A stretch of DNA of 64,000 nucleotides from Octopus vulgaris (taxonomy: Eukaryota), in NCBI GenBank assembly GCA_951406725.2, contig OX597814.1:117862001-117926000 (forward strand). Direction: 5' to 3'. The stretch's first letter is position 1, and each line of letters begins with the position of its first letter. The notes below the pieces were generated by a model, which saw nothing but the letters and a program-made list of their open reading frames with translations, was not told the DNA's origin and did not search any database. The position numbers and the translations under genes were made by a program. Shown here in pieces: positions 1,158 to 56,096 of this stretch.

Positions 1158-2048
1158 TTAAACCAAACTCAGTTCTCTCATCGACAATGCTCTTCTCAAT
1201 ACGTGTGATGTACCAGTTAAGACAATCTTTTGCACTTCTTGCAGGGATGGTAAGCCAGGGATCATTCTCATATAATTTTCGGTTCCCTTCTTGATCATTC
1301 CTAGTGCTCCTACGATCACTGGTATTGTAACCGCCTTGAGATGCCACATTTTCTCAATTTCAATGAGTAGGTCTTTATATTTTCTGAGCTTGTCAAACTC
1401 TTTCGCTGAGATATTATGATCACAAGGGATGCTCATGTCGATCAATAAGCAAACTTTATTGTTTTGGTCTTTCACAACAATATCTGGTTTATTGGCCTTG
1501 ATGGTTCGGTCTGTATGTACTGGAAAGTCCCACAGAATGGTTACATTTTCTCCTTCAGTTACAGCCTCTGGGTGGTGATTATACCACTTGTCGGCAGTTT
1601 TGATATTGTAATGCCGACTTATTAGCCAGTGGAGATATTGGCCAACTCTGTCATGTCTTAATTTATACTCCACTGGTGCTAAGACTTTACATCCAGAGAT
1701 TAGGTGGTCCACTGTTTCAATCATGTCGTTGCAGAATCGGCATTTTGGGTCTGCTCCATTTTTCATCACATTGGCCTGGTAGTTCCGGGTTAATAGGCTT
1801 TGATCTTGAGCAGCCAGGATGAAACCTTCGCTCTCTGCTTTTAGCCCTGAGCTCCGTAGCCACTGATGGGTTTGCTTCTGGTCAACATCAGCTTGTTTGC
1901 TGCGGGTCACATATTTGCCGTGCAGAGGTTTCTCCTCCCACCTATCAGCCAATTGCTCGTGCGCTTTTTTCATTGCCATCATTTTCACCTTCTTTGCAAC
2001 AATAGTTGCCGTACTTCCCTCGGATTGTTCAGTTTGGGTATCCTGCAC
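1158..2048 (-). pseudogene. CCHC zinc knuckle and restriction-like endonuclease domain of the R4/Dong element
   Basis: 296-aa ORF with CxxC..H..C, RHD, PDIV and IDMSIP motifs; C-terminal IPVIVGALG..QKIVLTGT.HVLRRAL. Confidence 0.9.
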
Positions 2049-2052
2049 GAGA

Positions 2053-3342
2053 TCAATAGCAACTTTTTTTGCTTTCCTTTATGATAGAATGAAGCTTCTT
2101 TCGTCTCTCGTGATTTTCCACGAGCTTTAGCATCCAGTCATTCGATATTTCGAGATATTTGGCCAGTCCAATTGTGGTTGTTTTGTAAGCTAGTTCAAAT
2201 TGGATCAGGCCTCGACCTCCTTGGGCTCTGGGAAGGTAAAGGCGATCTACGTCTGCCTTTGGGTGGTGCATCCTATTACAACTCAGCAGCTTGCGTATTT
2301 TTCTATCTATATTCTTTACTTCACTCATATTCCAGTTCAACACATTGTAGCTATAAGTAACAACTGGAACTGCTAAGGAAGTTATAGCTAACACCTTGTT
2401 ACGTGCATTTAGTTCAGATTTCAGGACTGCACGAACTCTCCTATAACATTCCTTGCTGATTTTCTCTTTCATGCTTGCATGCTGAATACCAGAGCCTTCA
2501 TTTATCCCTAAATATTTGTATGTTTGTTCGTGCTCAAGCTCTCTGATGACTGTGTCAACATCTAACACGACTGAATTTGTGGTCTTCACTTTCCCTTTCT
2601 GGAAAGTGGCCTTGGCACACTTCTCAAGTCCAAACTCCATCCCGATGTCATCGCTGAATGCTTTCACAGTGCGCAATAGGCCTTCAAGTTCATTATTGTC
2701 TTTACCATAAAGTTTTAAGTCATCCATATAAAATAGATGGCTTATTTTTTTATTGGCAATTTTATACCCATACACTGTTCTGTTTAATTCACTTGTAAGG
2801 GGTATTAGGGCTATGCAGAATATTAAAGGTGAAAGTGAGTCACCTTGAAAAATTCCACAGTTGATGTTTATATTTTCTGAGGCAAGTACTCCATTAGAGT
2901 GGTATAATTGGAGATTCGTATTCCACAACGACATATTGTGCTTCAGGAAGTTTGAAATCACAGGGGAAATTTTGAAGATGTCCAGCGATCTCAAGATCCA
3001 TGTATGCGGTATACTGTCGAAGGCCTTTTTATAGTCAATCCATGCGGTGCTGAGATTTCTGCGCTTGTTGTGACAGTTCTCAAGGATCATACGATTGATT
3101 AGCAGTTGATCTTTGCATCCGTAAGAGCCTCGGCGGCACCCTTTTTGTTCAATGGGGAAAATATCGTTCTTCTCCATGAATGCATATGTTTTCTCCGCCA
3201 GGATAGATGTTAGGATTTTATACGTGGTGGATAGACAGTTTATAGGCCGATAGTTTTTTGGAAGGTTGGTTTCGTTATTCTTTGGGAGTAGGTAAGTAAT
3301 GCCACTTGCTAACCATTCAGGTGTTTTCTTTGGGTCTCTCAT
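2053..3342 (-). pseudogene. Reverse transcriptase domain of the R4/Dong element (frameshift-bounded)
   Basis: 429-aa ORF with non-LTR RT motifs including the YMDD catalytic motif. Confidence 0.92.
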
Positions 3343-3933
3343 AATTCCATTGAGCAGCTGAACTAGCTTACCGTGTATGGCATGGGAGGGATGCGAGCCA
3401 GAAATTCGGCACCCTATCTTTACCGGGGGATTTCCAATTATGGGCCTTCGTGAGTGCCTTTCTTAGGTCTGCTATTGTGATGTCTTCCCATGCTTGTTGT
3501 TGTAAATTTTGGTAGGATCCTTCAGTTTGCATAATCCAGTCTGCATTTATGTTGTACGTCTTCTTGTCACTCCAAATCCTTTTCCAAAAGTTTTGAACTT
3601 CTTCCATGGGAGGGTGGTCTTTAACGGTTACTTTCTCCTTCCCTATTTCTCTGTAGAATTTTTTGGCATTGGATGTGAACAGCTTATTTTGCTTGTAAAA
3701 CTTGTTTCTCTTCTCAAATCTTCGTATTCTTTGGGCTTTTGCTTGGACTTTTTGTTTCAGCGTTTCTTTTATTGATATCAGTTCTTCTCTTGGTGAGGAT
3801 CCAAATTTTCTCTTCAACTTTCTTCCTGTTCTGGATCTTACATCATTTCCACATATTAGTTCATTTAATATTGATATTTCCCCTCTCATAAATTCAATCT
3901 CTTTTTCAATTTTACTATTATTATTATTATTAC

Positions 3934-4232
3934 TTTTTTTTTTCTTCTTTCAAATTTTCTTCCATTTCTTGCCGAGTGTCTTCCCGACTCCTAGGGCAAA
4001 GAAACTCATAGTGTATATTGGTAGGCCATTAAACCAAACTCAGTAGTTCGTTCATTTTTTTTTTTTTTTTTAAAGTTAAATTAAAATACATGAGCAGCAA
4101 CAGTTCTCACATCGACAATGCTCTTCTCAATACGTGTGATGTACCAGTTAAGACAATCTTTTGCACTTCTTGCAGGGATGGTAAGCCAGAGATCATTCTC
4201 ATATAATTTTCGGTTCCCTTCTTGATCATTCC
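3934..4232 (-). mobile_element. Heavily 5'-truncated copy of the same R4/Dong family (last ~42 codons plus 3' UTR)
   Basis: Near-identical to 1066-1300; encodes GMIKKGTENYMRMISGLPSLQEVQKIVLTGTSHVLRRALSM*; (TAA)n on both sides. Confidence 0.92.
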
Positions 4233-23099: not shown

Positions 23100-24332
23100 T
23101 CAACGATGTCCAGGAGTTCTGTTAATTGAAAAAGTTGTTTGTTCCGTGGAAAATGCATTCATGCGTTCTTTTAATCTCTGCCACAAAGTATACATCGTTT
23201 TATATCCATGTACGTGGTAAAAAACAAGCGTTCGTGTTGTGTCCTTGAAAAACCGATCCAATACCTTTCCAGAGTCAAGTACATAGGCCGAATTAAAACG
23301 GACATGTTTAATACCTAATGCTTTTACAAGCACACCAGTTACATAAACATCATCGATCCAAAAAAACGGAATTGTTAATGATTTTTTGAATAATCGGACG
23401 GCCATGTCTGGGCTCATAACATAAGCAGATCCCGAACAATACGATGGATACGTGTCCTTTGGAAATTCTTTACGTGAAACAAACCACTTACTCCGTCTGT
23501 CTCTGATCACTCTCATTCCTGTCCATACATTACACATTATAAAATCTTCCTGACCAAAATTGTGCTGATGAAGATCGGTCAACTGTTTTGCCAGCAGAAA
23601 AATGTTGACTAATATATCATCGTCTGTTTTCAGTATATATGTAGTATTGTGGCAGTATGTTGCGATCCAGCGCAACGCAGCCATTGCTTTAAAGTTTAAG
23701 TTCCGATACGAGTCGCGGAAAACACTCTGCATTATGTCATTGTAACGGTCAGATTCTAATTTGACCATATCCATAACACGAGGGCTGTCGACGACACCCA
23801 TCACAAATACTAACCTGATTTTTAAATTGCCCAACAGTTTTTTGTCACCCCATGTTTGTCGTATTGCCATTCGTCGCTTAAAGTTATTTGGTGCTGTGTG
23901 AATATAAACAATCACAAAATTATCAGAGGCACACAACAAAGAAGGATTAATGATTTGACTGGCGTTATAAGGCAGTCCTATTTCTGGCGGCACCAATAAT
24001 GAAGAGTTGTTCCAAAGTGAATTTTGAAATTTTAAAATTTCATCTTTTGACTGTAAATCATTATTACCTCTTAGCAATAAACCATTTAGAAATGAATTTT
24101 TATTTTTACTGTTAATAATTTTATTGATGTTGTTGTGATCAATGTTAATGTTCTTCCTTTTTTCCCCTTGAACCTCCTGCCGATCCCGCGCCGGTGACGA
24201 TGACAGCTGTATTAGTTTCATATCTTGTTTTTTTCTAGAAGCTAGTTCACGAAGAATGAAAAACGAACAGAGCGACAAGAATGCGAGACCCATGTAGAAT
24301 ATGCGGAAAACTTTGGGTAGGCGCGGGAACAT
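23100..24332 (-). CDS. Beta-1,3-galactosyltransferase (GT31/Galactosyl_T family, B3GALT1/brainiac-like), 410 aa, single coding exon
   Basis: Type II membrane layout: MFPRLPKVFR, TM IFYMGLAFLSLCSFFIL, N/K-rich stem. GT31 motifs RRMAIRQTWG, ESDRYNDIMQ..FRDSYRNL, YILKTDDD (DxD), YPSYCSGSAYVMS, IDDVYVTG. The track ORF starts at a GTG (24491); the first in-frame ATG is 24332 and an in-frame TGA lies at 24522-24524. Confidence 0.93.
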   Translation of the reverse strand: MFPRLPKVFRIFYMGLAFLSLCSFFILRELASRKKQDMKLIQLSSSPARDRQEVQGEKRKNINIDHNNINKIINSKNKNSFLNGLLLRGNNDLQSKDEILKFQNSLWNNSSLLVPPEIGLPYNASQIINPSLLCASDNFVIVYIHTAPNNFKRRMAIRQTWGDKKLLGNLKIRLVFVMGVVDSPRVMDMVKLESDRYNDIMQSVFRDSYRNLNFKAMAALRWIATYCHNTTYILKTDDDILVNIFLLAKQLTDLHQHNFGQEDFIMCNVWTGMRVIRDRRSKWFVSRKEFPKDTYPSYCSGSAYVMSPDMAVRLFKKSLTIPFFWIDDVYVTGVLVKALGIKHVRFNSAYVLDSGKVLDRFFKDTTRTLVFYHVHGYKTMYTLWQRLKERMNAFSTEQTTFSINRTPGHR

Positions 24333-24538
24333 TGGGGCCGGCGATCTCTTATGCCGGCTGCGTTTTACATGTCTTACACCTCTCTCCGCTCGTCGATGGC
24401 CATCGTCATGTGAGGGAACGACAGGAGAAGGAGAATTCTTCTTGTTTGGAACTGGAATGATTGCAGAACTAGCTGCCTGGTCGTTGATCACGACATCTGC
24501 AGCCTGCTTGAACGATTCGCTTCAACCGCCAGGTAGCT

Positions 24539-43963: not shown

Positions 43964-44163
43964 ACCTCGTGTGTACAGTTGGCGATTTTTTTCCTCTGTC
44001 TTCCCTTCTTTGGATCTTTCCTGCTCCTATGTTTCCGACGAAGAGCTCCGCTCGAAACGTTGAACCCTCCTTGTTTCCTTCTTTCCTGAGCGTCCAATAA
44101 TACTATATTTGTTCCACGTCCACGCGTTGTTGTGTTTTTTTTTGCTTTCTTGTTTGGATTAAC
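43961..44163 (+). mobile_element. ~205-bp HHR-bearing repeat, second copy (core CCGACGA, U4C variant)
   Basis: gttt-CCGACGA-a-gagc-tcc-gctc-GAAA-cg-TT-gaac at 44031-44065; flanked by (TA)n and (CT)n/(TA)n. Confidence 0.8.
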
Positions 44164-44185
44164 TCTCTCTCTCTCTCTCTCTCTC

Positions 44186-44238
<53 letters not shown>

Positions 44239-44259
44239 TATATACATGCATACATACGT

Positions 44260-44382
<123 letters not shown>

Positions 44383-44399
44383 GGTGTGTATGTATGTAT

Positions 44400-45460
44400 A
44401 TTATTTCCGTGGTCGTTATACATTGCTAGAACCTCCAGACATCTAAAAACATATGCAGACATAACCTCCGACTCATCGCAAATACAGATTAGAAATCTGT
44501 ACTCTACAATACCAAACCTTCGTACGACGTTGAACAAACGCACAGAATATAAGCAGCAGCCGCCAACCAAGCATTCTAGAGGAAAGAACACATGGAGAGA
44601 AAGACAAGCAAAATACAGACAACCATTAACTCATAATAATGGACGACCTGGAGGGATGAAACATGGGAAGAAAGACAAGTGAAGAACAGACAACACAGAG
44701 TCTATAATATAAGAAAATCATAATGAAAACTCAAGAAATCCACGACATATGACCACCAATCCTACACAGTCCAAGAAACGTAGGAGATTGGAATAAGACA
44801 ACTACTATGGACAAGGAAATATGTACAGACATCATGAAGCGTTCCCTCCCTGACAAGGAAGCCTGAACCTCAGAAATAGAAATTGGAGACATAACGATAC
44901 AACCCCTTTTTAGGGAGAAAATACTACAATCGCGCTCAGGACTCGATACAACACATGTTCCTAATGAACCCACATAACATATAGACGCATAAATGATAAA
45001 TTTATCAAATAGAGAACTCAACGAAAATGAAATGAGTCTCCTGCTAAAAGGTTTCAGTTTACCCCGACGCCCACTCCCAATCTAATAGAACTAAAAACCG
45101 ATATTGAAAACTTCAGCCGTCACATCGGTTTTATAGAATTCTTCGACAAGTAAGTAGAAGACAAATCAATAGTAAGAAAATATATCGTTTCAGCCCTTCC
45201 GAAGGGGCGATAGGCACCTTGATACATATATAGAAATAATTTAGAAACCTTGATACATATATAGAAACAATATAGAAACCTTGATACATATATAGAAACA
45301 ATATAGAAACCTTGATACATATATAGAAACAATCTCAAATTCGCGCAGAACCTTAATAAAAGAGAAAAGGAAGTTTAATAAAGACTAAAGAACGACAATT
45401 CAATCATCATAAAGGAAGCTGACAAGGGTGGGGCGATAGTAAACATGGACACAGAGATGG
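44400..45460 (+). mobile_element. Penelope-like element N-terminal region to RT start, relic
   Basis: INLSNRELNENEMSLLLKG..FTPTP..NLIELKTDIENFSR and RLKNDNSIIIKEADKGGAIVNMD (PLE NLS..L.KGL.F.PTP and DKG motifs). Confidence 0.85.
45217..45333. repeat. 31-bp tandem repeat, ~3.8 copies
   Basis: Unit CCTTGATACATATATAGAAACAATATAGAAA, no spacers. Confidence 0.9.
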
Positions 45461-47230
45461 AGACAGACAGGTACAAACAGACATGTGTATATACAAACAT
45501 ATGACCGTGTGTACGTGTGTGTCTATACATAATCTGGCCAACGTGGTCATCCTGTTTTAACAGGGCATAAATCACTATCGAAGCAATTAACCATTAGCTG
45601 CATATTGGGCAGCTCTCTGAATATAACTCCTCGGCTTTTCTCAGATCTGACTGCCAACAGTATGAGCATTATCTGAACGGCTACATAAATAAAAAGTCAG
45701 TCATAGTGGTACAAAGAGAGATGTACATTTAGGCTGAGTGATACAATTTGTATAATGTAGCGATGACTATATAGAATACATTACATGAATTGATGATCTG
45801 AAGAGAAAGAGATATACCAATTTTATATTAGTCCGGGTCTGCACAACTGCAGCTTTGTTGTGTAAGAAGTAAAACGGTTGATTCGACATAAGGGTCACTT
45901 TGATTTTAGACAAAGAGTCTTTAAAAGTGTGCAAACTATTTTGTATGGTTAGGTTCTTTTCATAGCAAACAAAACCACTAAATCTGATCAAATGCTTCTT
46001 AAGATATTGAATATCGCATAAAAGCGCGTTAAATTGGCTACACTGCCCACCTCACTGCTGGTTAACTTTGGAGTCTGATAATACCAACTTTAATTATTGC
46101 TACGATACAATTCACTTGGCATTCAGCCATTGACAAAAGAGTGAAATTTGCCGGAAATAATGTAATAATCCGATACAACTAGGTTGAAAGTCCACTGGTG
46201 TTTTTTAACTGCAGTGTTAGCAGATCTATTGAAATAATATTATGCACGTAGAAATCTTCAAAATGTGTGCTGCGTCTAACCTCAAGATCCTGAAGGGTGC
46301 AAGTTTAGTTAATTTAAAATGTGGTAACATGCCAAATTCAATATGTTGTAGTAAAGTTCAAGTGTAATCACTGTCGCTCTGAATGTCTATTATTTCGAGT
46401 GCAAGAAAATAAGTACCTATAATTGAACAGAATCTAAATTTTACCCACACTTAATGTTATTAAGTTATGTTGACTGAAATGAATCCAAACTTTATAATTA
46501 ATGAAAAAGTACGTAATACCTAACACTAGATAACACAATAGGCCAAGTTATAAACCTGATTTCCTGTCACGAGTGGAGTCATTTCTTGACATTCATATTA
46601 AGAAAACCATTATACAAATATATTGCCTGAATACAAAATTATATTCCCGAATCATGACGGAAGAGTGCAATCATATGTTAATTACAGCACAGCCATTATT
46701 ACTCCAGCACGATTTGTCAGACGTGGATATCAAATATCCTTCTGTTTGTTTTGCTATTTTACATCTTTACGATACAGATCAAAATATACTTATTCTGTCC
46801 TCTTCTGTTTCCGAAGACAAGACACTAAATTATCCATCTCAATGTTCCTCTTGCTGACAATGAATAACTTAGCGTCGTATAATTTCATCGCAAATAGGTT
46901 CGAATATTTCAATGAGTTTTACGTAAGATTTGATAAACACGATTTCTGTTAGCATATATATATCTACACTGACGGTGTTTATTGTAGATATATAGACACC
47001 GAAATAGTAACTCCGATTTCAAACATCAAATCATCGCGGCAGGACGAATATATTAGATTATCATCAATGTTTTTAGTTGAATATCTGTTAACAATCAACA
47101 CCCACCCCATTAAAACAAAGTTTTTATCTATGTACTTATCTATCATATGCCTTGTCATGCTATTTATCAATCTATTTATCTCTCTTTACCTCCCTTACTT
47201 CTGTCTCTGTCTCTCTTTCTCTCTCTCTCT

Positions 47231-47284
<54 letters not shown>

Positions 47285-49226
47285 CCCTGACTTTCTGCCT
47301 CTTCCTCTTTCTCTCTTTAAATTCCAAAACAGTGAACGTTCTGATTTTCTCTATAAATACGTTTATATTTTTTGATATATAACAGAAATACTGAAGAACT
47401 TTAGCAGAGATTGCAAATGCTGTTTTGCATTGACAATATCGAAAACTGAATTTTCTGTTTGTCGTTATAAACGTGTGGCTCGCAGGACACAACTAAGTGA
47501 CTCACAAAATTTCGTTGCTTTCCGTTAACGATGTGAAATGGAAAATATTATTTATTACTAGGATTACTAGCATCGTTGCTATATTGTATGATTTGTATAA
47601 AATTTTATCTATGCTGTAGCAATAAAAAGCAAAAATATACCTCTAAACTGGGGAAAAATAGCTTCAAGTTTCGTAATTATTGACCCATGCATATATATGC
47701 CTACTACAAAAAGAGAAGTTACAAAAACTCCGCAGGTACATTTGCTTCTTTTAATAACAAAGAACGAAATCATTTACGATCATATCGTCCCTACTAACTT
47801 AAATATAGCAGATTCCTTGCGAAATTTAGCTGTAGGTGTAAATATTTAGAAGTGAAATGTTTGAAATGCAAAGCTGTTGAATATACGATAAAATATTTCT
47901 TCACAATGAAAGTATGTTAAAATATTTTTTGCTGAATATGCAGATCATATTTGATTTGTTTCTCCTTATCTTTGGAGTTTTATATCTTATAGTTTTTAAC
48001 TGCGTATTGTTAGGATTTTTTTGCGTATGCAAAATTATTTCATAGTTCTTGACATTGCGATACTTAACCAGACGGTAACACATTCCCTTGATTACAGAAA
48101 AAGATGGAGAGAGAAGCGTCGGAGACTGTGAGGTACAGGGAATGTAGTTGCAACGATTTCACGTGATTAGTTGGCGGGAAAGAGTGCAGAAAGAGAAAGG
48201 AGAGAGAAAAAGAGGATACAGCGAAGAGTGAGGCAGAAAGACGGAGAGAAAAATTGAAGGAGAGAGAAGCGTCCATGACGTGAGGTAGGGGGAACGAAAT
48301 AATTTTAGCTGAGTGATGATGTTCTGATGGAGTTGTTAAAATAAAGGCAGAGAGAGGAGAGAGGATGGTGAGGAGAGAGATGATTATGGTGGTGGAGATG
48401 GTGGTGGTGACTGGATAGTGAAAAGTGTATTTTATAAAATTCATCTAAGTTTTTTACATCACCTATCACTTAACGCAGGCGCATGCGTGCAATTCCATGA
48501 AATATTGACGCTTATTTACGTGGTAGATATATACAATTTAACTAAAGTTTGTAGCATACGTACGGATATTTTGTTTATGCTTATGGGTAAAATGGAAAAA
48601 TGACAGTGAATATATATTTTATGCATGCTGTGTATTAAGTCTATAAAATTGTGCATAAATTATATAAAGTGCTTATTTAAATTGTCTTAAGTAATCATCG
48701 TATTCCAATTTCTTTCACTTTTCAATGAGTAGCAGATAAGCGACTATCTTTCCATACAGGCACAACACAGTCAACACTTTCAGGAATTTTGATAAAGTTT
48801 TCAGAAATAACCCAGTAGGTCTACCATTAATTCTATGAAATATTAACGGGTCCCGCTCGTATTTCATAATTTGATTTTCCTTCTTGCATGTACACGTGAC
48901 TTTCATAGCATTGTATATTAATTTGTTATACATCATCTTCCCATTCCTAAATAGTAAAGCCAAATTCTTAATTACGAATAACGTTTCTATTATAAGCAAA
49001 ATCATTTGTTTGTTTTTTTCTTGAATCAGAATACGTTGAGATTTTCACGTAATGCCAATGTTATATATTTTACATTTTCTCATGTTCGGTTATTTATAAT
49101 TGCTACCTATAAAGAAAACACTGCCAAATAGCATCACGTAACGTCACATTAAGCGTCATTTTTCGTTTTCCCTTTCGATTTCAGACTTCTTTTTACACAT
49201 ACCTGTATGTATGTCTTTATATCTGT

Positions 49227-49287
<61 letters not shown>

Positions 49288-49397
49288 CGTCTGTCTCTCT
49301 ATACATATTTGTGTATGTGCATGTATGCATGAGTGTGTTTCTATAGATGAGTTTGTTTGTATATATATATATAACATCGTAGATTTCGTCTTGGTAT

Positions 49398-49475
49398 ATG
49401 TTTGGCTGATGAAGGTAAAACAAAATATGGGTGAGAGACATATCTTGTAAAACCTGAAACCTGCAGGTACCACAT
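49398..49475 (+). ncRNA. Minimal type I hammerhead ribozyme, copy 1
   Basis: tgg-CTGATGA-aggt..acct-GAAA-cctgcagg-TA-cca; stem III is the palindrome ACCTGCAGGT; predicted cleavage after 49469. Confidence 0.85.
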
Positions 49476-49824
49476 TATCCTTTTCCGGGTGTTTCATCTT
49501 TCAGATGTTCTCCCTGGAGGTAAGACGGGTTTTTTCTCTAATTTGTTGCACACACGCATTTTTGCTAATACATACGCGGTGAAGCTACACATTAGCGTCG
49601 TATTTTTAGATTCGCTATTTCCAGTAAATATCGGTACTTAGTTGTGCCATTTACTAATTTGTGTATTTTTCCCTCACGGGCTACTTTTTACTGGAAGGCA
49701 ATACTTTGTATTGCATTACTGATATTTTGAAACTTCTTCACCGTTTCTCGTACTGTTAGCGTTCCGCATTTCAGTCGAGTGTGTTAGTATTAATGTGGTA
49801 ACATCGTAGATTTCGTCTTGGTAT

Positions 49825-49903
49825 ATGTTTGGCTGATGAAGGTAAAACAAAATATGGGTGAGAGGATATATCTTGTAAAACCTGAAACCTGCAGGTACCA
49901 CAT
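49825..49903 (+). ncRNA. Minimal type I hammerhead ribozyme, copy 2
   Basis: Same core and stems as copy 1; predicted cleavage after 49897. Confidence 0.85.
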
Positions 49904-52700
49904 TATCCTTTTCCGGGTGTTTCATCTTTCAGATGTTCTCCCTGGAGGTAAGACGGGTTTTTTCTCTAATTTGTTGCACACACGCATTTTTGCTAATACA
50001 TACGCGGTGAAGCTACACATTAGCGTCGTATTTTTACGTTCGCTATTTCCAGTAAATATCGGTACTTAGTTGTGCCATGTATTTACTAATTTGTATATAT
50101 ATATATATATATATATATATACCGTTTTGGGTTCGGTTTGCAAGATTCTTTGTATGAGTTCGTGTGTTGGAGCATACTCTGTTGTGTCTGGGGAGAGTCA
50201 TTTTATTGTTGTGCCTTATTCTGTAACACACTCACCGGTAATATTTCCACTTATTTCTTATTTATATTTTCCTAAAATTTTCGTTGCGTCTTTCAACCTT
50301 TTCAATAGTGTGTCAATGTGTGTGTGTGTGTATGTGTTCATATTACGGGAACTTGTGCCGCTACATTCCATCAATATTTATGGTTATCACAATGTCTTTA
50401 ATAGAAAGCCCCTTAAGTTCTCATACTGTCTCTGCAGGAACTTCACCTCACGATGAATATAAAATTACTGAAACAAATCAGCATTTTGAAACCAGGCTAG
50501 GAATGTTTTAATTTCCCCAGGACAATGCCTGTATAATTCAGTAGAATACAGCGTAGAACTTCAACTTAGCGATGGATCTACATCGAAATTTTACAACGGA
50601 GAGATTGGAACCGCTCTAATAGACATTTACTAATTACTACAGATAAGAAATCTACTAGGCAAGCAGCTCCATCAAACTTGCAATTCTATCAACGTAATAC
50701 TTATAATTTCATCCTTCGTTGAAATGTGCTTAAATCCGCAAGAACTGAGATAGTGAAACAAGAACTGTTTTTAGGAATATCAGATACATCCGGACATGAA
50801 AACTTAGATTAATCGATCAACATGAAGCTTCTCAAAGTACCATTGGCAACGTGTTATTTAACAAACTGTCTTAGGTTGTCAGATTAACGCCTAATGTGTT
50901 GGGTTGTCAGATTAATGCCTTCCTTTCCTTTAAATGTTCTTGAATTAACATGAAAAATACTTATCACTGTGTTTTATAGCATTTAATAGATTTATTCTTT
51001 CTCTACATCTCTTGTTTATTCTATTTCAAATCTCAATAAATTTTACTTCTTTCAGATATATGATAATGGATTGCCAAGTAGAAGAAACTGAGCATTTTCA
51101 GCATCTGTTCCTCTTCTAATCCGATCAAACTTCCAAGAATGCAAAAACCAGGCATTGGTGTTCTGTACGGGGAGAGAGCTTTCACTGAAAGAACTGCACA
51201 GAAAAATTTTACATGTGTCAAGGGAGCGAATTTGAACAACACGAAATCTCATCTTCCGGCCGATCATTGCAGTTCACTAAAGATTGCTTGAACGAGATCA
51301 TTCGCCTGGGTCCATACCAACCCACTTGGAAATTAGCACAGCAGATTGGTACGTCGTGATGTTATTGTTGGTAATCTTCACTCTATGTGCAAGGTTCAAA
51401 TCACTGTACGTGTATGCCACGTGCTATGAACAGGAGAAACATACTCCAGCGCTTCTGTAACCCGTTAGTTTACTCGCTTGACATCAGGTTACTTGTGGGC
51501 ATTAACATAAGCTTTTATACTGCTTTGGACTGGTTGTAAAAATAGTCTCTTTACGACACTATGAAGTAAAAAAAAATGGATGAGTCCCCAAAAGCTAGGA
51601 ACAACTTGAACCAAGCCAGAAATGCATCCAGGTAAGACAATAGTCTGTGTTTAGTAGGATTGATCCAGAACGAATTGCTTCAAAACAACCACATAATCAA
51701 TACCGAGCTACACTTTCTCGAAAGGCATCTAAAAGACAGTCAGATATGTAGTTAGCGAATGTTCAAACTGTCCCAGAAATAGTACAGAAAAATGTTACAA
51801 CAATGTTACCGCAGAAAGTTCCCTGAGAGATGTTGAAGTAGTTGTGAGTTAGAATTTACCGACTAGTAATATGAACACTAACCATTGCCGGTCGCAGACT
51901 ATGACCATTTGAAACTCACATAGTACATGATAATCTATACCGATAAAAATAATCTAACATACTGATATAGGTCTTACGCCCTTTATAGAAAGTGACAGAA
52001 ACGGTCTTCATCCACATAGCGGGACTTGCAGATCTAAACATTGTGAAGACATAAAGCAAAGAAAGAAACATATATGTAAATGTATTTGTGTAGTTTGTGT
52101 GGTGTAGTGTGTGTGTGTGTGTGTGTGTGTGTAGAAGAGTATCAAGGCCTAGCATTTGAAGTAGATTATATCCTTAGAGTCACAAGATGGTCATCGTGAC
52201 TGGTATACAAGGAACCGCCTCAAAGAAAACAAAAGCCGGACATAGAAAACTGGAATGGCCAGACGTCATATAAAGTACACATCTGAGGGCCAAACTCTGA
52301 AAACTGCGTGAATTTCTTAAAATGGAGAATATTACTGAAATATTATATTCCTATTTAACGAACAATTCCAGTATTTCTTTAGGGGAGCAGGGCTCCTGTA
52401 AAAAACATGAGCAAATAACGCAAAGCATTTCATTCTGACACCCTAACTGAAGTACCAAGTCGCCCGCTTGCAACTGATGAAAGCGAGCATTAAAGGAATC
52501 AATCTTCCCAGATGACATAATATATGGTGAAACATCTCTTTGCAAATAAATGCCTGGAATAGGAATATAAAGCATATATTGTTCCCTCTAACATTGTGTA
52601 TACAGCCTTAGTTCACTTCTTTGGCGGTTTTTTATTTTAAATGGTGGTGTATAATTACAGATATGTTTACCAGTAATCTATTGCCTACGACTATATATAT

Positions 52701-53023
52701 AATATTATTGGTGAATTGAAGAAATGGAGCTGAACGCAGATTGAACAGAAATCGTTTTATTTCATTCTACGTGTTTCGAAAGGCACAATTTACCAAAATC
52801 CGATTGAATAATGGGACCATAATTGTGTCTTTCTCTTCAGGAAGAAATAGGAAATCCGTTGGAAAAAACAAAAACAGAACAGAGGCGGAGAAAGACACAA
52901 TATGGTCCCATTATTCAATCGGATTTTGGTAAATTGTGCCTTTCGAAACACGTGTAGAATGAAATAAAACGATTTCTGTTCAATCTGCGTTCAGCTCCAT
53001 TTCTTCAATTCACCAATAATATT
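52701..53023. repeat. Near-perfect ~135-bp inverted repeat (52701-52835 and 52888-53023), inverted pLTR-like
   Basis: Arms differ by only two small indels; 52-nt spacer. Confidence 0.92.
52759..52848 (-). ncRNA. Type I hammerhead ribozyme motif with long stem II
   Basis: atttcttc-CTGAAGA-gaaagacacaatt...aattgtgcctttc-GAAA-cacg-TA-gaatgaaat. Confidence 0.78.
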
Positions 53024-53172
53024 TTAATTTCAGTTATCCGCACCAACGCACGGTTGCAACACCATATGGTTGTACCTCCAACCGTGCTGTTTACTGCTGT
53101 GATTTTTGCTACCAAGGTATCGGTTAAACTTTTGATTAATCTACTACAAGATTATTCATCTTTCTATTTCAC

Positions 53173-53220
<48 letters not shown>

Positions 53221-53440
53221 ATAAGAATATACAAAAAAAATAAAACAAAAGACGAAGATGGGTGTGTAAATAGCAAACATATGTATTAGTTTAACGCTCG
53301 GGAAGAGAGAAAGTCTTTTACCTTTCGTTCCTACGCTCTTCGACACAAAGGAACACAGAAATAAACGGGAAGAGAAAATAGAAAAATGTTTAGTGGCTTG
53401 CAATCTATCATGGCGAATGCCGGACAGAGGGGTGACACAC
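53221..53440 (-). mobile_element. Short repeat next to (TA)n with a decayed HHR-like motif
   Basis: cttt-gtgtcga-a-gagcgtaggaac-GAAA-gg-TA-aaag: same layout as the 33.5-kb motif but with a mutated core. Confidence 0.4.
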
Positions 53441-54475
53441 GAGCGCTGGGAAGAAGGGGAGATAATAGTGTATGTGTGTGTATGAATATATATATATATA
53501 TGTATATATTCACACACACTCACACACACACACACATATATATGCATTTATAGACGAAATATATGGAAACTTTTAAAAATCAAGATATTATTAAAAATCT
53601 ACGCTCAGCCTTTATAGTCACAATAACAGCATGCCTCTTCATATCTTGAATAAGCTGAGGGTTTACCATGATTATTTTCTGAATCAAAGGTTATACAGAG
53701 TAAGCAAAAGAAGCAACAATGACTCCAAAAAACGTATCTCCTCAAATACCTTACGCACACTGTATAAACTAGTATATCTATATTTATCCATCTAACAATC
53801 TCTCTAACTATCAATCTATCTAGCTATATATACATACATATACATACATACATATATTATCACAGACACACACACATATATGAGGAACGCTACTTGTATA
53901 TTTGTGTGCTGCACCATAATTTTGTAGATAAATGAATTACACTTCAGTAATAAAGATACATCTTAATCACAGTATGGTGTTATATTTCAACTAACGACAC
54001 TAAAATCTTGAGCATTGCATATTTTTACGCTTCTCATTTTGTTCTGAGACAATAAAATACTGGGGGAAATCCAAGCTTTTTCAGAATGCCTCAGAGATTA
54101 TCTATATTCAGATACACTTGAAATGTTTTTGTGAAAAAAATCTGATTAGAGTTGTGCAATCAATTTAGGGAAAGATACATATCAATCACGTTATGCATGG
54201 TGTCCAACTAAACTGAGTGTGGTACTGTAATTGTCAGTTTTGACGAACATAAAATGGCGCAGAACCAATTGCTAAAGCAACCACCGCATACACGCAATCG
54301 AAACACAAAAACACTCCTTCATATGCATACGAAGAACACTCATATATGCAAACATGCTAGAGTACACACAAGCGGCAGGTAAAGACACACGTCTAGTTTA
54401 TTAGCATACCACTTATGAGGTATCCTCTATTCGATTCCAAACTATAAAAGAGAGAAGTAAGAATGACACTATGTA

Positions 54476-54537
<62 letters not shown>

Positions 54538-54555
54538 GTGTATGTATGTATATAC

Positions 54556-54743
54556 CTTATAAAATACGGGCAAAAGAAAATGTCTAATGTCAAATATGCC
54601 GAAAATTGTCCGGTAATAACGGAATTTTTAGAAATTTCTATCGGCATTTTTCGAGACGCATACGTTATAATGGTTATTGACAAATTTGCGTTTTTAAGGC
54701 ACATTTGGCATTAGAATTTTTTCTTTTGCCCTTATTTTATAAG
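54556..54743. repeat. MITE-like hairpin with ~45-bp imperfect terminal inverted repeats
   Basis: CTTATAAAATACGGGCAAAAGAAAATGTCTAATGTCAAATATGCC versus GGCACATTTGGCATTAGAATTTTTTCTTTTGCCCTTATTTTATAAG. Confidence 0.65.
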
Positions 54744-54838
54744 TTATTTATAAATTGAACCTTTAAATGTATTTTTTATATGCTGGCCATTGATAAAATT
54801 TTTTCGAAAAAAATTGTATCCTACATTAGTCATATATA

Positions 54839-55015
54839 CATCAAATCGACATTACCTGTACAGGTGGAACGGGTAGCACATGCCAGATGTTGAAATAATC
54901 GCAAAGCAACGTGTTTTGCTCAGGAACACAAGGCAGCACCCGGTCTGGGAATCGAGCCCACGATCTCGCAATCGTAAGTGAATCACACTAACCACTGAGC
55001 CACGCGGCTTATGTA
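54839..55015 (-). mobile_element. tRNA-derived SINE family C, left copy of a head-to-head pair
   Basis: A-box-like TGGCTCAGTGGTTAG and B-box-like GGCTCGATTCCC; reverse complement of 55243-55419. Confidence 0.82.
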
Positions 55016-55075
55016 TATATATATGTATATATGTATTACGTATATGTATATATATAATGTATATATATATATATA

Positions 55076-55198
<123 letters not shown>

Positions 55199-55242
55199 AT
55201 AAAATCCCATAGATTTATTATTGCTTATATATATATATACAT

Positions 55243-55520
55243 TACATAAGGCGCGTGGCTCAGTGGTTGGGGTGTTGCAGTTACGATTGAGAGATCATGG
55301 GCTCGATTCCCAGACCGGGTGCTGCCTTGTGTTCCTGAGCAAAACACGTTGCTTTGCGATTATTTCAACATGTGGCATGTGCTACTCGTTCCACCTGTAC
55401 AGGTAATGTCGATTTGATGGAGAGAGTGAGTTTATGTCTACACAAATAGTTGATCACCATAAACAAATCATCTGCGTGGTTGTTCGGTAAGAAATTATCT
55501 AACTCTCATAGATCGTCCAA
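55243..55520 (+). mobile_element. tRNA-derived SINE family C, right copy
   Basis: GCGCGTGGCTCAGTGGTTGG...GGCTCGATTCCCAGACCGG. Confidence 0.82.
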
Positions 55521-55577
55521 CGAAGAGTTCATCATGCAATGTATGCATAATCTATGTAGAGAGACAGAGATAGAATT

Positions 55578-55628
<51 letters not shown>

Positions 55629-56096
55629 GCGAGATAGACGGAGAAAGAGTTCAAATGCTAGCGGTGTCGACTAAGCCTTTCAACATTTAAGTAGTTAATA
55701 AGCTATGTATCACTTCAGCACTGGATTCGAGGTAGTCGACTGAATCGTAAAAAAATATATGTATGTTTGACTGTGTGTGTGGATTCAGGTTGTACGTATG
55801 CACGTATACATTCAAAAATCATAAAAGCAACAACAAAAGCGGCGTGTCCCGGCAACCAGATCAATTCTTATTTTGCTAGCTTAGCTTGATATACTTCGCT
55901 GATTACATCAATAAAAGATTGAGACATTCGTTGGTTTCTTTGAAAATTAGCTTTTAAAAAGCAGATCCACGCCTAAAAACATTCGACAAACACTGTGCGT
56001 TACATATATGAGATTCTAACAGAAGTAATACAAACACATAGGCACACACACTCAAACACACACACACACATATATATATATAAAAACATAAACACG

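Follow-up and report, generated by a model that had tools for sequence, protein, structure and literature searches.

The element at positions 49372-50094 of the analysed window (64,000 nt of Octopus vulgaris DNA, the whole stretch to which all positions refer) is a young, protein-free mobile repeat of about 430 nt with a predicted self-cutting motif. It consists of 1.7 units of the repeat with two intact type I hammerheads and lies within a TA tract. With moderate confidence, it was interpreted as one copy of a non-coding repeat that was likely pasted into TA microsatellites by a Penelope-type element (PLE), probably by way of a one-unit circular RNA.

The initial annotation had described direct repeats within a TA tract, and the same layout was recovered here. 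Positions 49372-49666 align with 49799-50098 at a period of 427/428 nt, and the two copies differ inside the element by 3 substitutions, a 1-nt indel and a 4-nt indel. The left target tract is (TA)7 (49360..49373), the last TA of which overlaps the truncated 5' end of the element, and the right target tract is (TA)14 (50094..50121). Between them lie, on the plus strand, a complete 427-nt unit (49372..49798; unit position = window position - 49371) and a partial second unit (49799..50094), which stops at the main fixed 3' end of the family (unit ~295). The LTR-like look of the window copy is explained by just 1.7 turns of one unit, with copying begun at this 295 site. In unit 1, a 'tail' of about 59 nt (49667..49725, plus strand) is delimited by the two fixed 3' ends of the family (unit ~295 and ~354), and these boundaries would be start sites of reverse transcription. 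The tail region holds a 7-bp hairpin (49698-49714), and a predicted 10-bp stem of the plus strand, formed by 49619-49628 with 49687-49696 (49619..49696), encloses the first fixed 3' end; this stem is kept across the family, without covariation.

As first noted, the hammerhead core is intact in both copies, with CUGAUGA (49406 and 49833), GAAA, GUA and the palindrome ACCTGCAGGT (49459 and 49887). Both motifs lie on the plus strand. Hammerhead 1 (49393..49479) is built from stem I (49393-49405/49470-49479), the CUGAUGA core (49406-49412), stem II with its extension (49413-49416/49452-49455), GAAA (49456-49459) and the palindrome (49459..49468), with a predicted cut after 49469. In hammerhead 2 (49820..49907) the core occupies 49833-49839 and the palindrome 49887-49896, and the cut is predicted after 49897. 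The two cuts are 428 nt apart and delimit a predicted plus-strand monomer RNA of that length (49470..49897). The description as a minimal hammerhead had to be abandoned, as the motif has a 10-pair stem I and a 4-pair stem II with a 10-pair extension. Stem III consists of 2 pairs with a palindromic tetraloop, and where a G-C pair is normally found the motif has A10.1-U11.1. The 'canonical' metazoan type I motif is described in the main text of PMC4209133 as having a short helix III and a palindromic loop and as being active as a dimer; apart from A10.1-U11.1, the window motif is closer to this form than to the minimal one.

A full hammerhead descriptor matched at three places in the window, namely the two copies and another element near 52840, and in none of 40 shuffles. 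Rfam returned no hammerhead for 44000-56000 at E<=1, nor for the element itself at E<=10, probably because of the long stem II insertion. Among 24 distinct haplotypes, picked by hand, 96.6% of cells were paired, compared with 30-49% in slid controls. In stem II, G-C was swapped for A-U in 10 sequences, and one pair of the stem II extension occurred as A-U, G-C or U-A; each of these double-sided changes may have arisen once and been inherited. Covarying pairs were no more numerous in the set than in shuffles (392/500). Variants seen in at least four loci affected 55 of 417 positions (129 loci). The subfamily variants fell at none of the 11 invariant core positions, and both free positions, N7 and H17 (GUA/GUC), varied. 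As the search patterns themselves partly dictated core positions 85-97, the invariance of the core gives modest support to a ribozyme under selection, as judged from the sequences.

Pairing between the two palindromes, as the initial annotation had proposed, was predicted for the folded transcript with a pair probability of 0.88-0.97. Within a monomer the palindrome can form the 2-pair stem III; together with its second copy it can form a duplex of 10 bp. In the model the constrained dimer fold was 11.7 kcal/mol more stable than two monomer folds. Relative to the unconstrained minimum, both active folds were less favourable, by 12.5 and 24.2 kcal/mol, and the own stem I of copy 1 had a probability of about zero, in a nearest-neighbour model that leaves out the tertiary contacts of the core. 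The predicted 428-nt monomer folded better than shuffled sequences (z -3.81, 0/100). For comparison, eight of nine Xenopus retrozyme dimers are reported in the main text of bioRxiv 10.64898/2026.07.22.740005 as uncleaved in vitro, and one as cleaved.

No credible or conserved ORF was found in the unit, in agreement with its earlier description as non-coding. A 77-aa ATG frame was rejected as copy-specific: it exists only through the 1-nt insertion of copy 2 and also requires the N7=U allele, which is absent from most copies. A splice-like stretch at 49500-49525 is kept in the family, with an acceptor-like TTTCAG, 15 nt from ATG to GAG, and a donor-like GTAAGA. The predicted fold also pairs the donor-like bases with sequence located upstream of the ribozyme, and the stretch may reflect only base pairing.

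The family was searched across the 2.8-Gb genome, which has about 30 large contigs. An exact 24-nt core pattern gave 120 matches and its reversed control none; a GUC variant pattern gave 74 matches, 29 of the 30 fetched being family members; and the DNA search gave at least 111 matches from the 40 scored of 1268 candidates. Copies were present on nearly all large contigs. From 173 loci, 133 distinct insertions were retained after 38 duplicate or unmatched ones, and then the co-duplicated L116 and L193, had been dropped; L209 (unrelated) and three context loci had been left out beforehand, and allele counts exclude one 73%-identical arm of L006. L115 (C6) and L116 (C1) are 99.7% identical over the whole 3.6 kb fetched although they lie on different contigs, and L192 and L193 represent a family copy duplicated along with its flanks. 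The median divergence between loci was 2.2% (first 97 loci), and a subfamily exists at about 89-92% identity to the window unit. The period between cut sites ranged from 428 to 437 nt across the family.

The identity of the two window copies had been read as a sign of recent activity. As it results from one insertion event, it dates the window insertion but not the family. Long tandem arrays were not found among the 133 insertions, the longest arm being 1131 nt (2.65 units). Two ribozymes were present in 16 of 186 arms; the window copy belongs to this minority with two intact ribozymes, which makes it a convenient construct for cleavage and circle tests.

The ends of the insertions followed a restricted pattern. 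Among one-armed insertions (n = 91), the 3' end was located at ~295 in 83, at ~354 in 6 and elsewhere in 2, frequencies that are biased since loci were picked by best match, ribozyme patterns or the main 3' junction. Two-armed, back-to-back inverted insertions (n = 42) had one arm at each fixed end in 38 cases; one had two 295 ends and three had one arm ending at 177-192. The latter (L189, L210 and L214) all belong to the divergent subfamily, and their ends may represent a third start site or a later deletion. Outer 3' ends abutted (TA)4 or more in 171 of 175 cases. In contrast to these fixed 3' ends, the 5' ends were scattered along the unit in the 133 insertions. Single-arm 5' ends started with TA/AT in 50 of 87 cases against 17% of unit dinucleotides, a share inflated by BLAST extension into TA flanks, and an apparent pile-up of 5' ends at unit position 1 was discarded as largely a query-edge artefact.

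According to the main text of PMC8557442, PLE copies occur as partial tandems and as inverted copies truncated at the 5' end, with a tail of 30-40 bp, and for the anole element PAc the tail is presented in PMC11167929 as the interval between two internal RT start sites, with AT-rich targets. These features of a non-autonomous PLE, i.e. two fixed 3' ends (the tail), an inverted 5'-truncated arm and partial tandems, are present in the octopus family. The earlier suggestion of PLE mobilisation is thereby strongly backed by the two fixed 3' ends and the inverted arms, and on these sequence grounds the repeat is very probably a non-autonomous element mobilised by a PLE.

Information on the copied template was obtained from comparisons within arms. 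Diagnostic subfamily sites agreed between the units of one arm in 787 of 819 cases, while 27% were discordant between loci. Rare variants shared between units of an arm numbered 37 against a control mean of 3.2, most of them from one divergent locus (L107). No terminal-unit-specific allele was found in the arm comparisons. Variants absent from other loci occurred in every unit of an arm, such as position 235 in three units of L010, position 365 in two units of the same locus, and position 260 in L096. In exact genome searches, all 42 copies continued through the cut site and none started there, with a pattern that catches mainly one haplotype group; in the biased set of arms, 2 of 186 started at 95-103. 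This read-through indicates that copying did not finish by run-off at a cleaved 5' terminus, and a linear cleaved template was rejected on the missing pile-up of 5' ends at the cut site (0 vs 42). The homogeneity of arms, the lack of a terminal-unit allele and the read-through are all explained by a ligated one-unit circle, and these sequence patterns point to a circle as the probable template, although gene conversion could be an alternative homogeniser of the units.

The strongest competing explanation is a PLE passenger copied from uncleaved linear read-through RNA of a short homogeneous tandem, in which circles take no part and the hammerhead is kept for the processing of host read-through RNA or for protein-assisted late cleavage. 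The 42/42 read-through is equally expected from such a template, and the short arms, only 16 of 186 with two ribozymes, fit it as well. Experiments on PAc, the one PLE so far assayed in vitro, lend it further weight: in the published main text (PMC11167929), hammerhead cleavage is dispensable in vitro and unprocessed RNA is the main substrate, hammerhead mutants still insert, and no RNA-seq reads are reported to start or stop at the cut site. However, it presupposes for every subfamily a master copy at least 2-2.65 units long whose units are identical, and the private variants found in every unit of an arm (L010 positions 235 and 365; L096 position 260) are difficult to accommodate. Repeated 5' truncation would wear down the arrays without a one-unit stage. 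An uncleaved tandem transcript accounts for the three template patterns only if such a stage or gene conversion occurred at some point in the history of each subfamily. Copying from linear RNA was considered rather unlikely.

Under the preferred interpretation of a circular template, the following sequence of events is proposed. A two-ribozyme copy, e.g. the window copy, would be transcribed. The hammerheads would then pair through their palindromes and cut, freeing the monomer, as predicted by folding and by analogy, and a host ligase would close the circle, by analogy with the RtcB results reported in PMC7229834. A PLE endonuclease would nick (TA)n, and reverse transcription would begin at an internal position of the RNA, unit ~295 or ~354. 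Both fixed ends and the TA target are observed in the insertions, and a PLE would be the source of the enzyme. The enzyme would pass the cut site, might circle more than once and would stop variably, which is consistent with the observed read-through, arms of up to 2.65 units and variable 5' ends. Priming of the other strand from the second site would give the inverted two-armed insertions, whose architecture is as observed. Whether the insertions indeed record a Penelope-type enzyme that primed at two internal sites of a circle and rolled round for more than one turn can be answered in the affirmative only tentatively. As the unit is unlike every local PLE terminal repeat sampled, the RNA may be recognised by its structure; the modelled stem around the first 3' end and the tail hairpin may be the recognition structures. 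If the proposal is true, the suggested retrozyme life cycle, from circle to tandem cDNA by PLE enzymes, becomes testable in vitro, since intact young PLE ORFs exist in the same genome.

A partner or a fused PLE ORF was sought around the insertions. None of the 133 was fused to one, which corroborates the initial view of a non-coding retrozyme-type unit independent of an attached PLE ORF and led to the rejection of an autonomous PLE pLTR contiguous with an RT + GIY-YIG ORF. Upstream of the ribozyme, long copies run on into the same 430-nt unit, up to 1131 nt. Candidate ORF fusions at L130, L004, L225 and L188 were rejected as nesting in the TA end of another element or as unrelated DNA, and co-mobilisation with a PLE at L115/L116 was rejected as the two loci are one duplicated segment. 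Between the family copies and the nearby PLE ORFs that were inspected lay a TA tract, the terminal repeat of the PLE itself or unrelated DNA. Among the 5' flanks of single arms (n = 87), only 5 pairs shared junction sequence, of which three are the element's own short inverted arms and two resemble another dispersed repeat. The GIY-YIG family search scored 150 of 6136 candidates, with 46 loci fetched, and the partner search, which also took in 16 larger PLE loci and sensitive alignments, brought up several PLE and hammerhead families. No similarity of the unit was detected to the 46 PLE loci sampled from the 6136 candidates or to 30 other hammerhead loci, and for 7 PLE terminal regions and 4 other hammerhead elements similarity to the unit was not above shuffles (best z 2.2).

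These results bear on a second explanation, by which the copies would be no more than pieces of the terminal repeat of an autonomous PLE, its coding part having escaped sampling. Many PLE families would indeed be unseen with 150 of 6136 GIY-YIG candidates scored and 46 loci fetched, and vertebrate retrozymes often resemble pLTRs according to the main text of bioRxiv 10.64898/2026.07.22.740005. On the other hand, every long copy continues upstream into its own unit, the nearby PLE ORFs are separated as described, and shared junctions are confined to the 5 pairs of 87 flanks, so that this origin appears highly improbable. Finally, an origin by local tandem duplication, as a satellite or as an assembly artefact, with the likeness to a ribozyme due to chance, to which the lack of an Rfam match and the richness of the region in simple repeats might point, can practically be dismissed, given copies with fixed ends on nearly all large contigs, the descriptor absent from 40 shuffles, compensatory stem changes, and two units that differ in a copy that is one of the 16 two-ribozyme arms of 186.

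Young ORFs of 781 aa that combine RT and GIY-YIG and carry a CX4CX2C linker are present in the genome, eleven other copies being 95-99% identical to L061. This family (L061:430-5672 and L062-L072) is a young, ~4.8-kb two-ORF PLE of the Neptune/Nematis type. Its 781-aa RT + GIY-YIG ORFs are intact, its tail measures 40 nt, and the terminal repeat contains a hammerhead-like core of variant sequence (UUGAUAA). Two local PLE families show their own two-ended TA-tract insertions, with tails of ~40 and ~30 nt; the tail of the retrozyme family (59-60 nt) is longer than both. A further PLE, at L247:5076-7301 (minus strand), is rich in pyrimidines and keeps its RT + GIY-YIG frame open; it is divergent, with an identity of only 27-30% to the rest of the local families. 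In the window itself, 45043-45453 (plus strand) preserves the N-terminal part of a PLE ORF in decayed, fragmentary form, with 35% identity to L061.

By those criteria that can be assessed on sequence, the family is a metazoan non-LTR retrozyme: it has a type I core in each unit, at least two consecutive ribozymes, no coding capacity, and a dispersed multi-copy distribution. With the coral, Mytilus mussel and axolotl representatives, as described in the main text of PMC7229834, it has in common non-coding tandem units with one type I hammerhead each, a short stem III with a palindromic loop, a highly self-paired monomer, low G+C and the presence of PLEs in the same genome. It differs in the length of the unit (428-437 nt here, 170-400 nt there) and in number, hundreds of ribozymes compared with thousands. 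Dispersed 5'-truncated partial tandems in which no long arrays were seen, the extended stem II and A10.1-U11.1 also set it apart from the elements described there. Circles have been shown for those retrozymes (PMC7229834); for the octopus family they are predicted. In Xenopus, 24 of 57 families match known elements, mostly PLEs, according to the main text of bioRxiv 10.64898/2026.07.22.740005, whereas no pLTR homologue was found among the PLE families sampled here.

The family resembles the EN+ PLEs of the Neptune/Nematis type with a CX2-5CxxC linker, as presented in the main texts on PAc Poseidon (PMC11167929) and in PMC8557442, in several respects: a tail between two fixed 3' ends, an arm that is inverted and truncated at the 5' end, partial tandems, insertion into AT-rich or (TA)n sites, and a hammerhead upstream of the ends. 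Unlike them, it has no ORF, a tail of 59-60 nt instead of 30-40, and no sequence similarity to the sampled local PLE terminal repeats. Chlamys MRC1 (PMC8557442) is similarly non-autonomous and pLTR-like, with head-to-tail multicopy insertions made by PLE machinery; in the account given there, Chlamys non-autonomous PLEs generally share 3' sequence with an autonomous family and belong to a clade without canonical hammerheads. In plant LTR retrozymes, two direct hammerhead repeats flank a short unique stretch, which is how the single window copy appears. In these elements the hammerheads are of type III, the LTR ends are fixed, and PBS/PPT and 4-bp TSDs are present, as outlined in the main text of bioRxiv 10.64898/2026.07.22.740005; a plant-type LTR retrozyme was rejected on the type I topology and on the scatter of 5' ends along the unit.

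PLEs have been proposed as mobilisers of animal retrozymes on the basis of co-occurrence, tandem layout and pLTR homology in the main texts of PMC7229834 and bioRxiv 10.64898/2026.07.22.740005. The present family adds insertion-level evidence (tail, inverted arms and TA target) and allele evidence for a one-unit template. No cephalopod retrozyme or such insertion footprint was found in a literature search covering main texts, mostly from outside the subscription journals; the main text of a 2026 Octopus repeat annotation makes no mention of ribozyme, hammerhead or retrozyme.

Several other elements were recorded. At 52693-53025 of the window, a second, unrelated two-armed hammerhead element adjoins a TA run, with its motif on the minus strand near 52840; it has a CUGAAGA core and a very long stem II, and pieces of it recur at L221, L052, L120 and L189. 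A short-stem-II hammerhead pattern gave 113 matches in several families (30 fetched, L157-L186), many with a palindromic stem III (ACAGCTGT, ACACGTGT, ACTAGT or ACATGT), and one of these families has a tandem period of ~363 nt. On the minus strand of the window, 1161-3949 holds a LINE-type reverse transcriptase in frameshifted pieces (RVT_1, weak zf-RVT), and the 473-aa frame at 23103-24521, which has no interruption and includes a Galactosyl_T domain, is probably an exon of a host gene.
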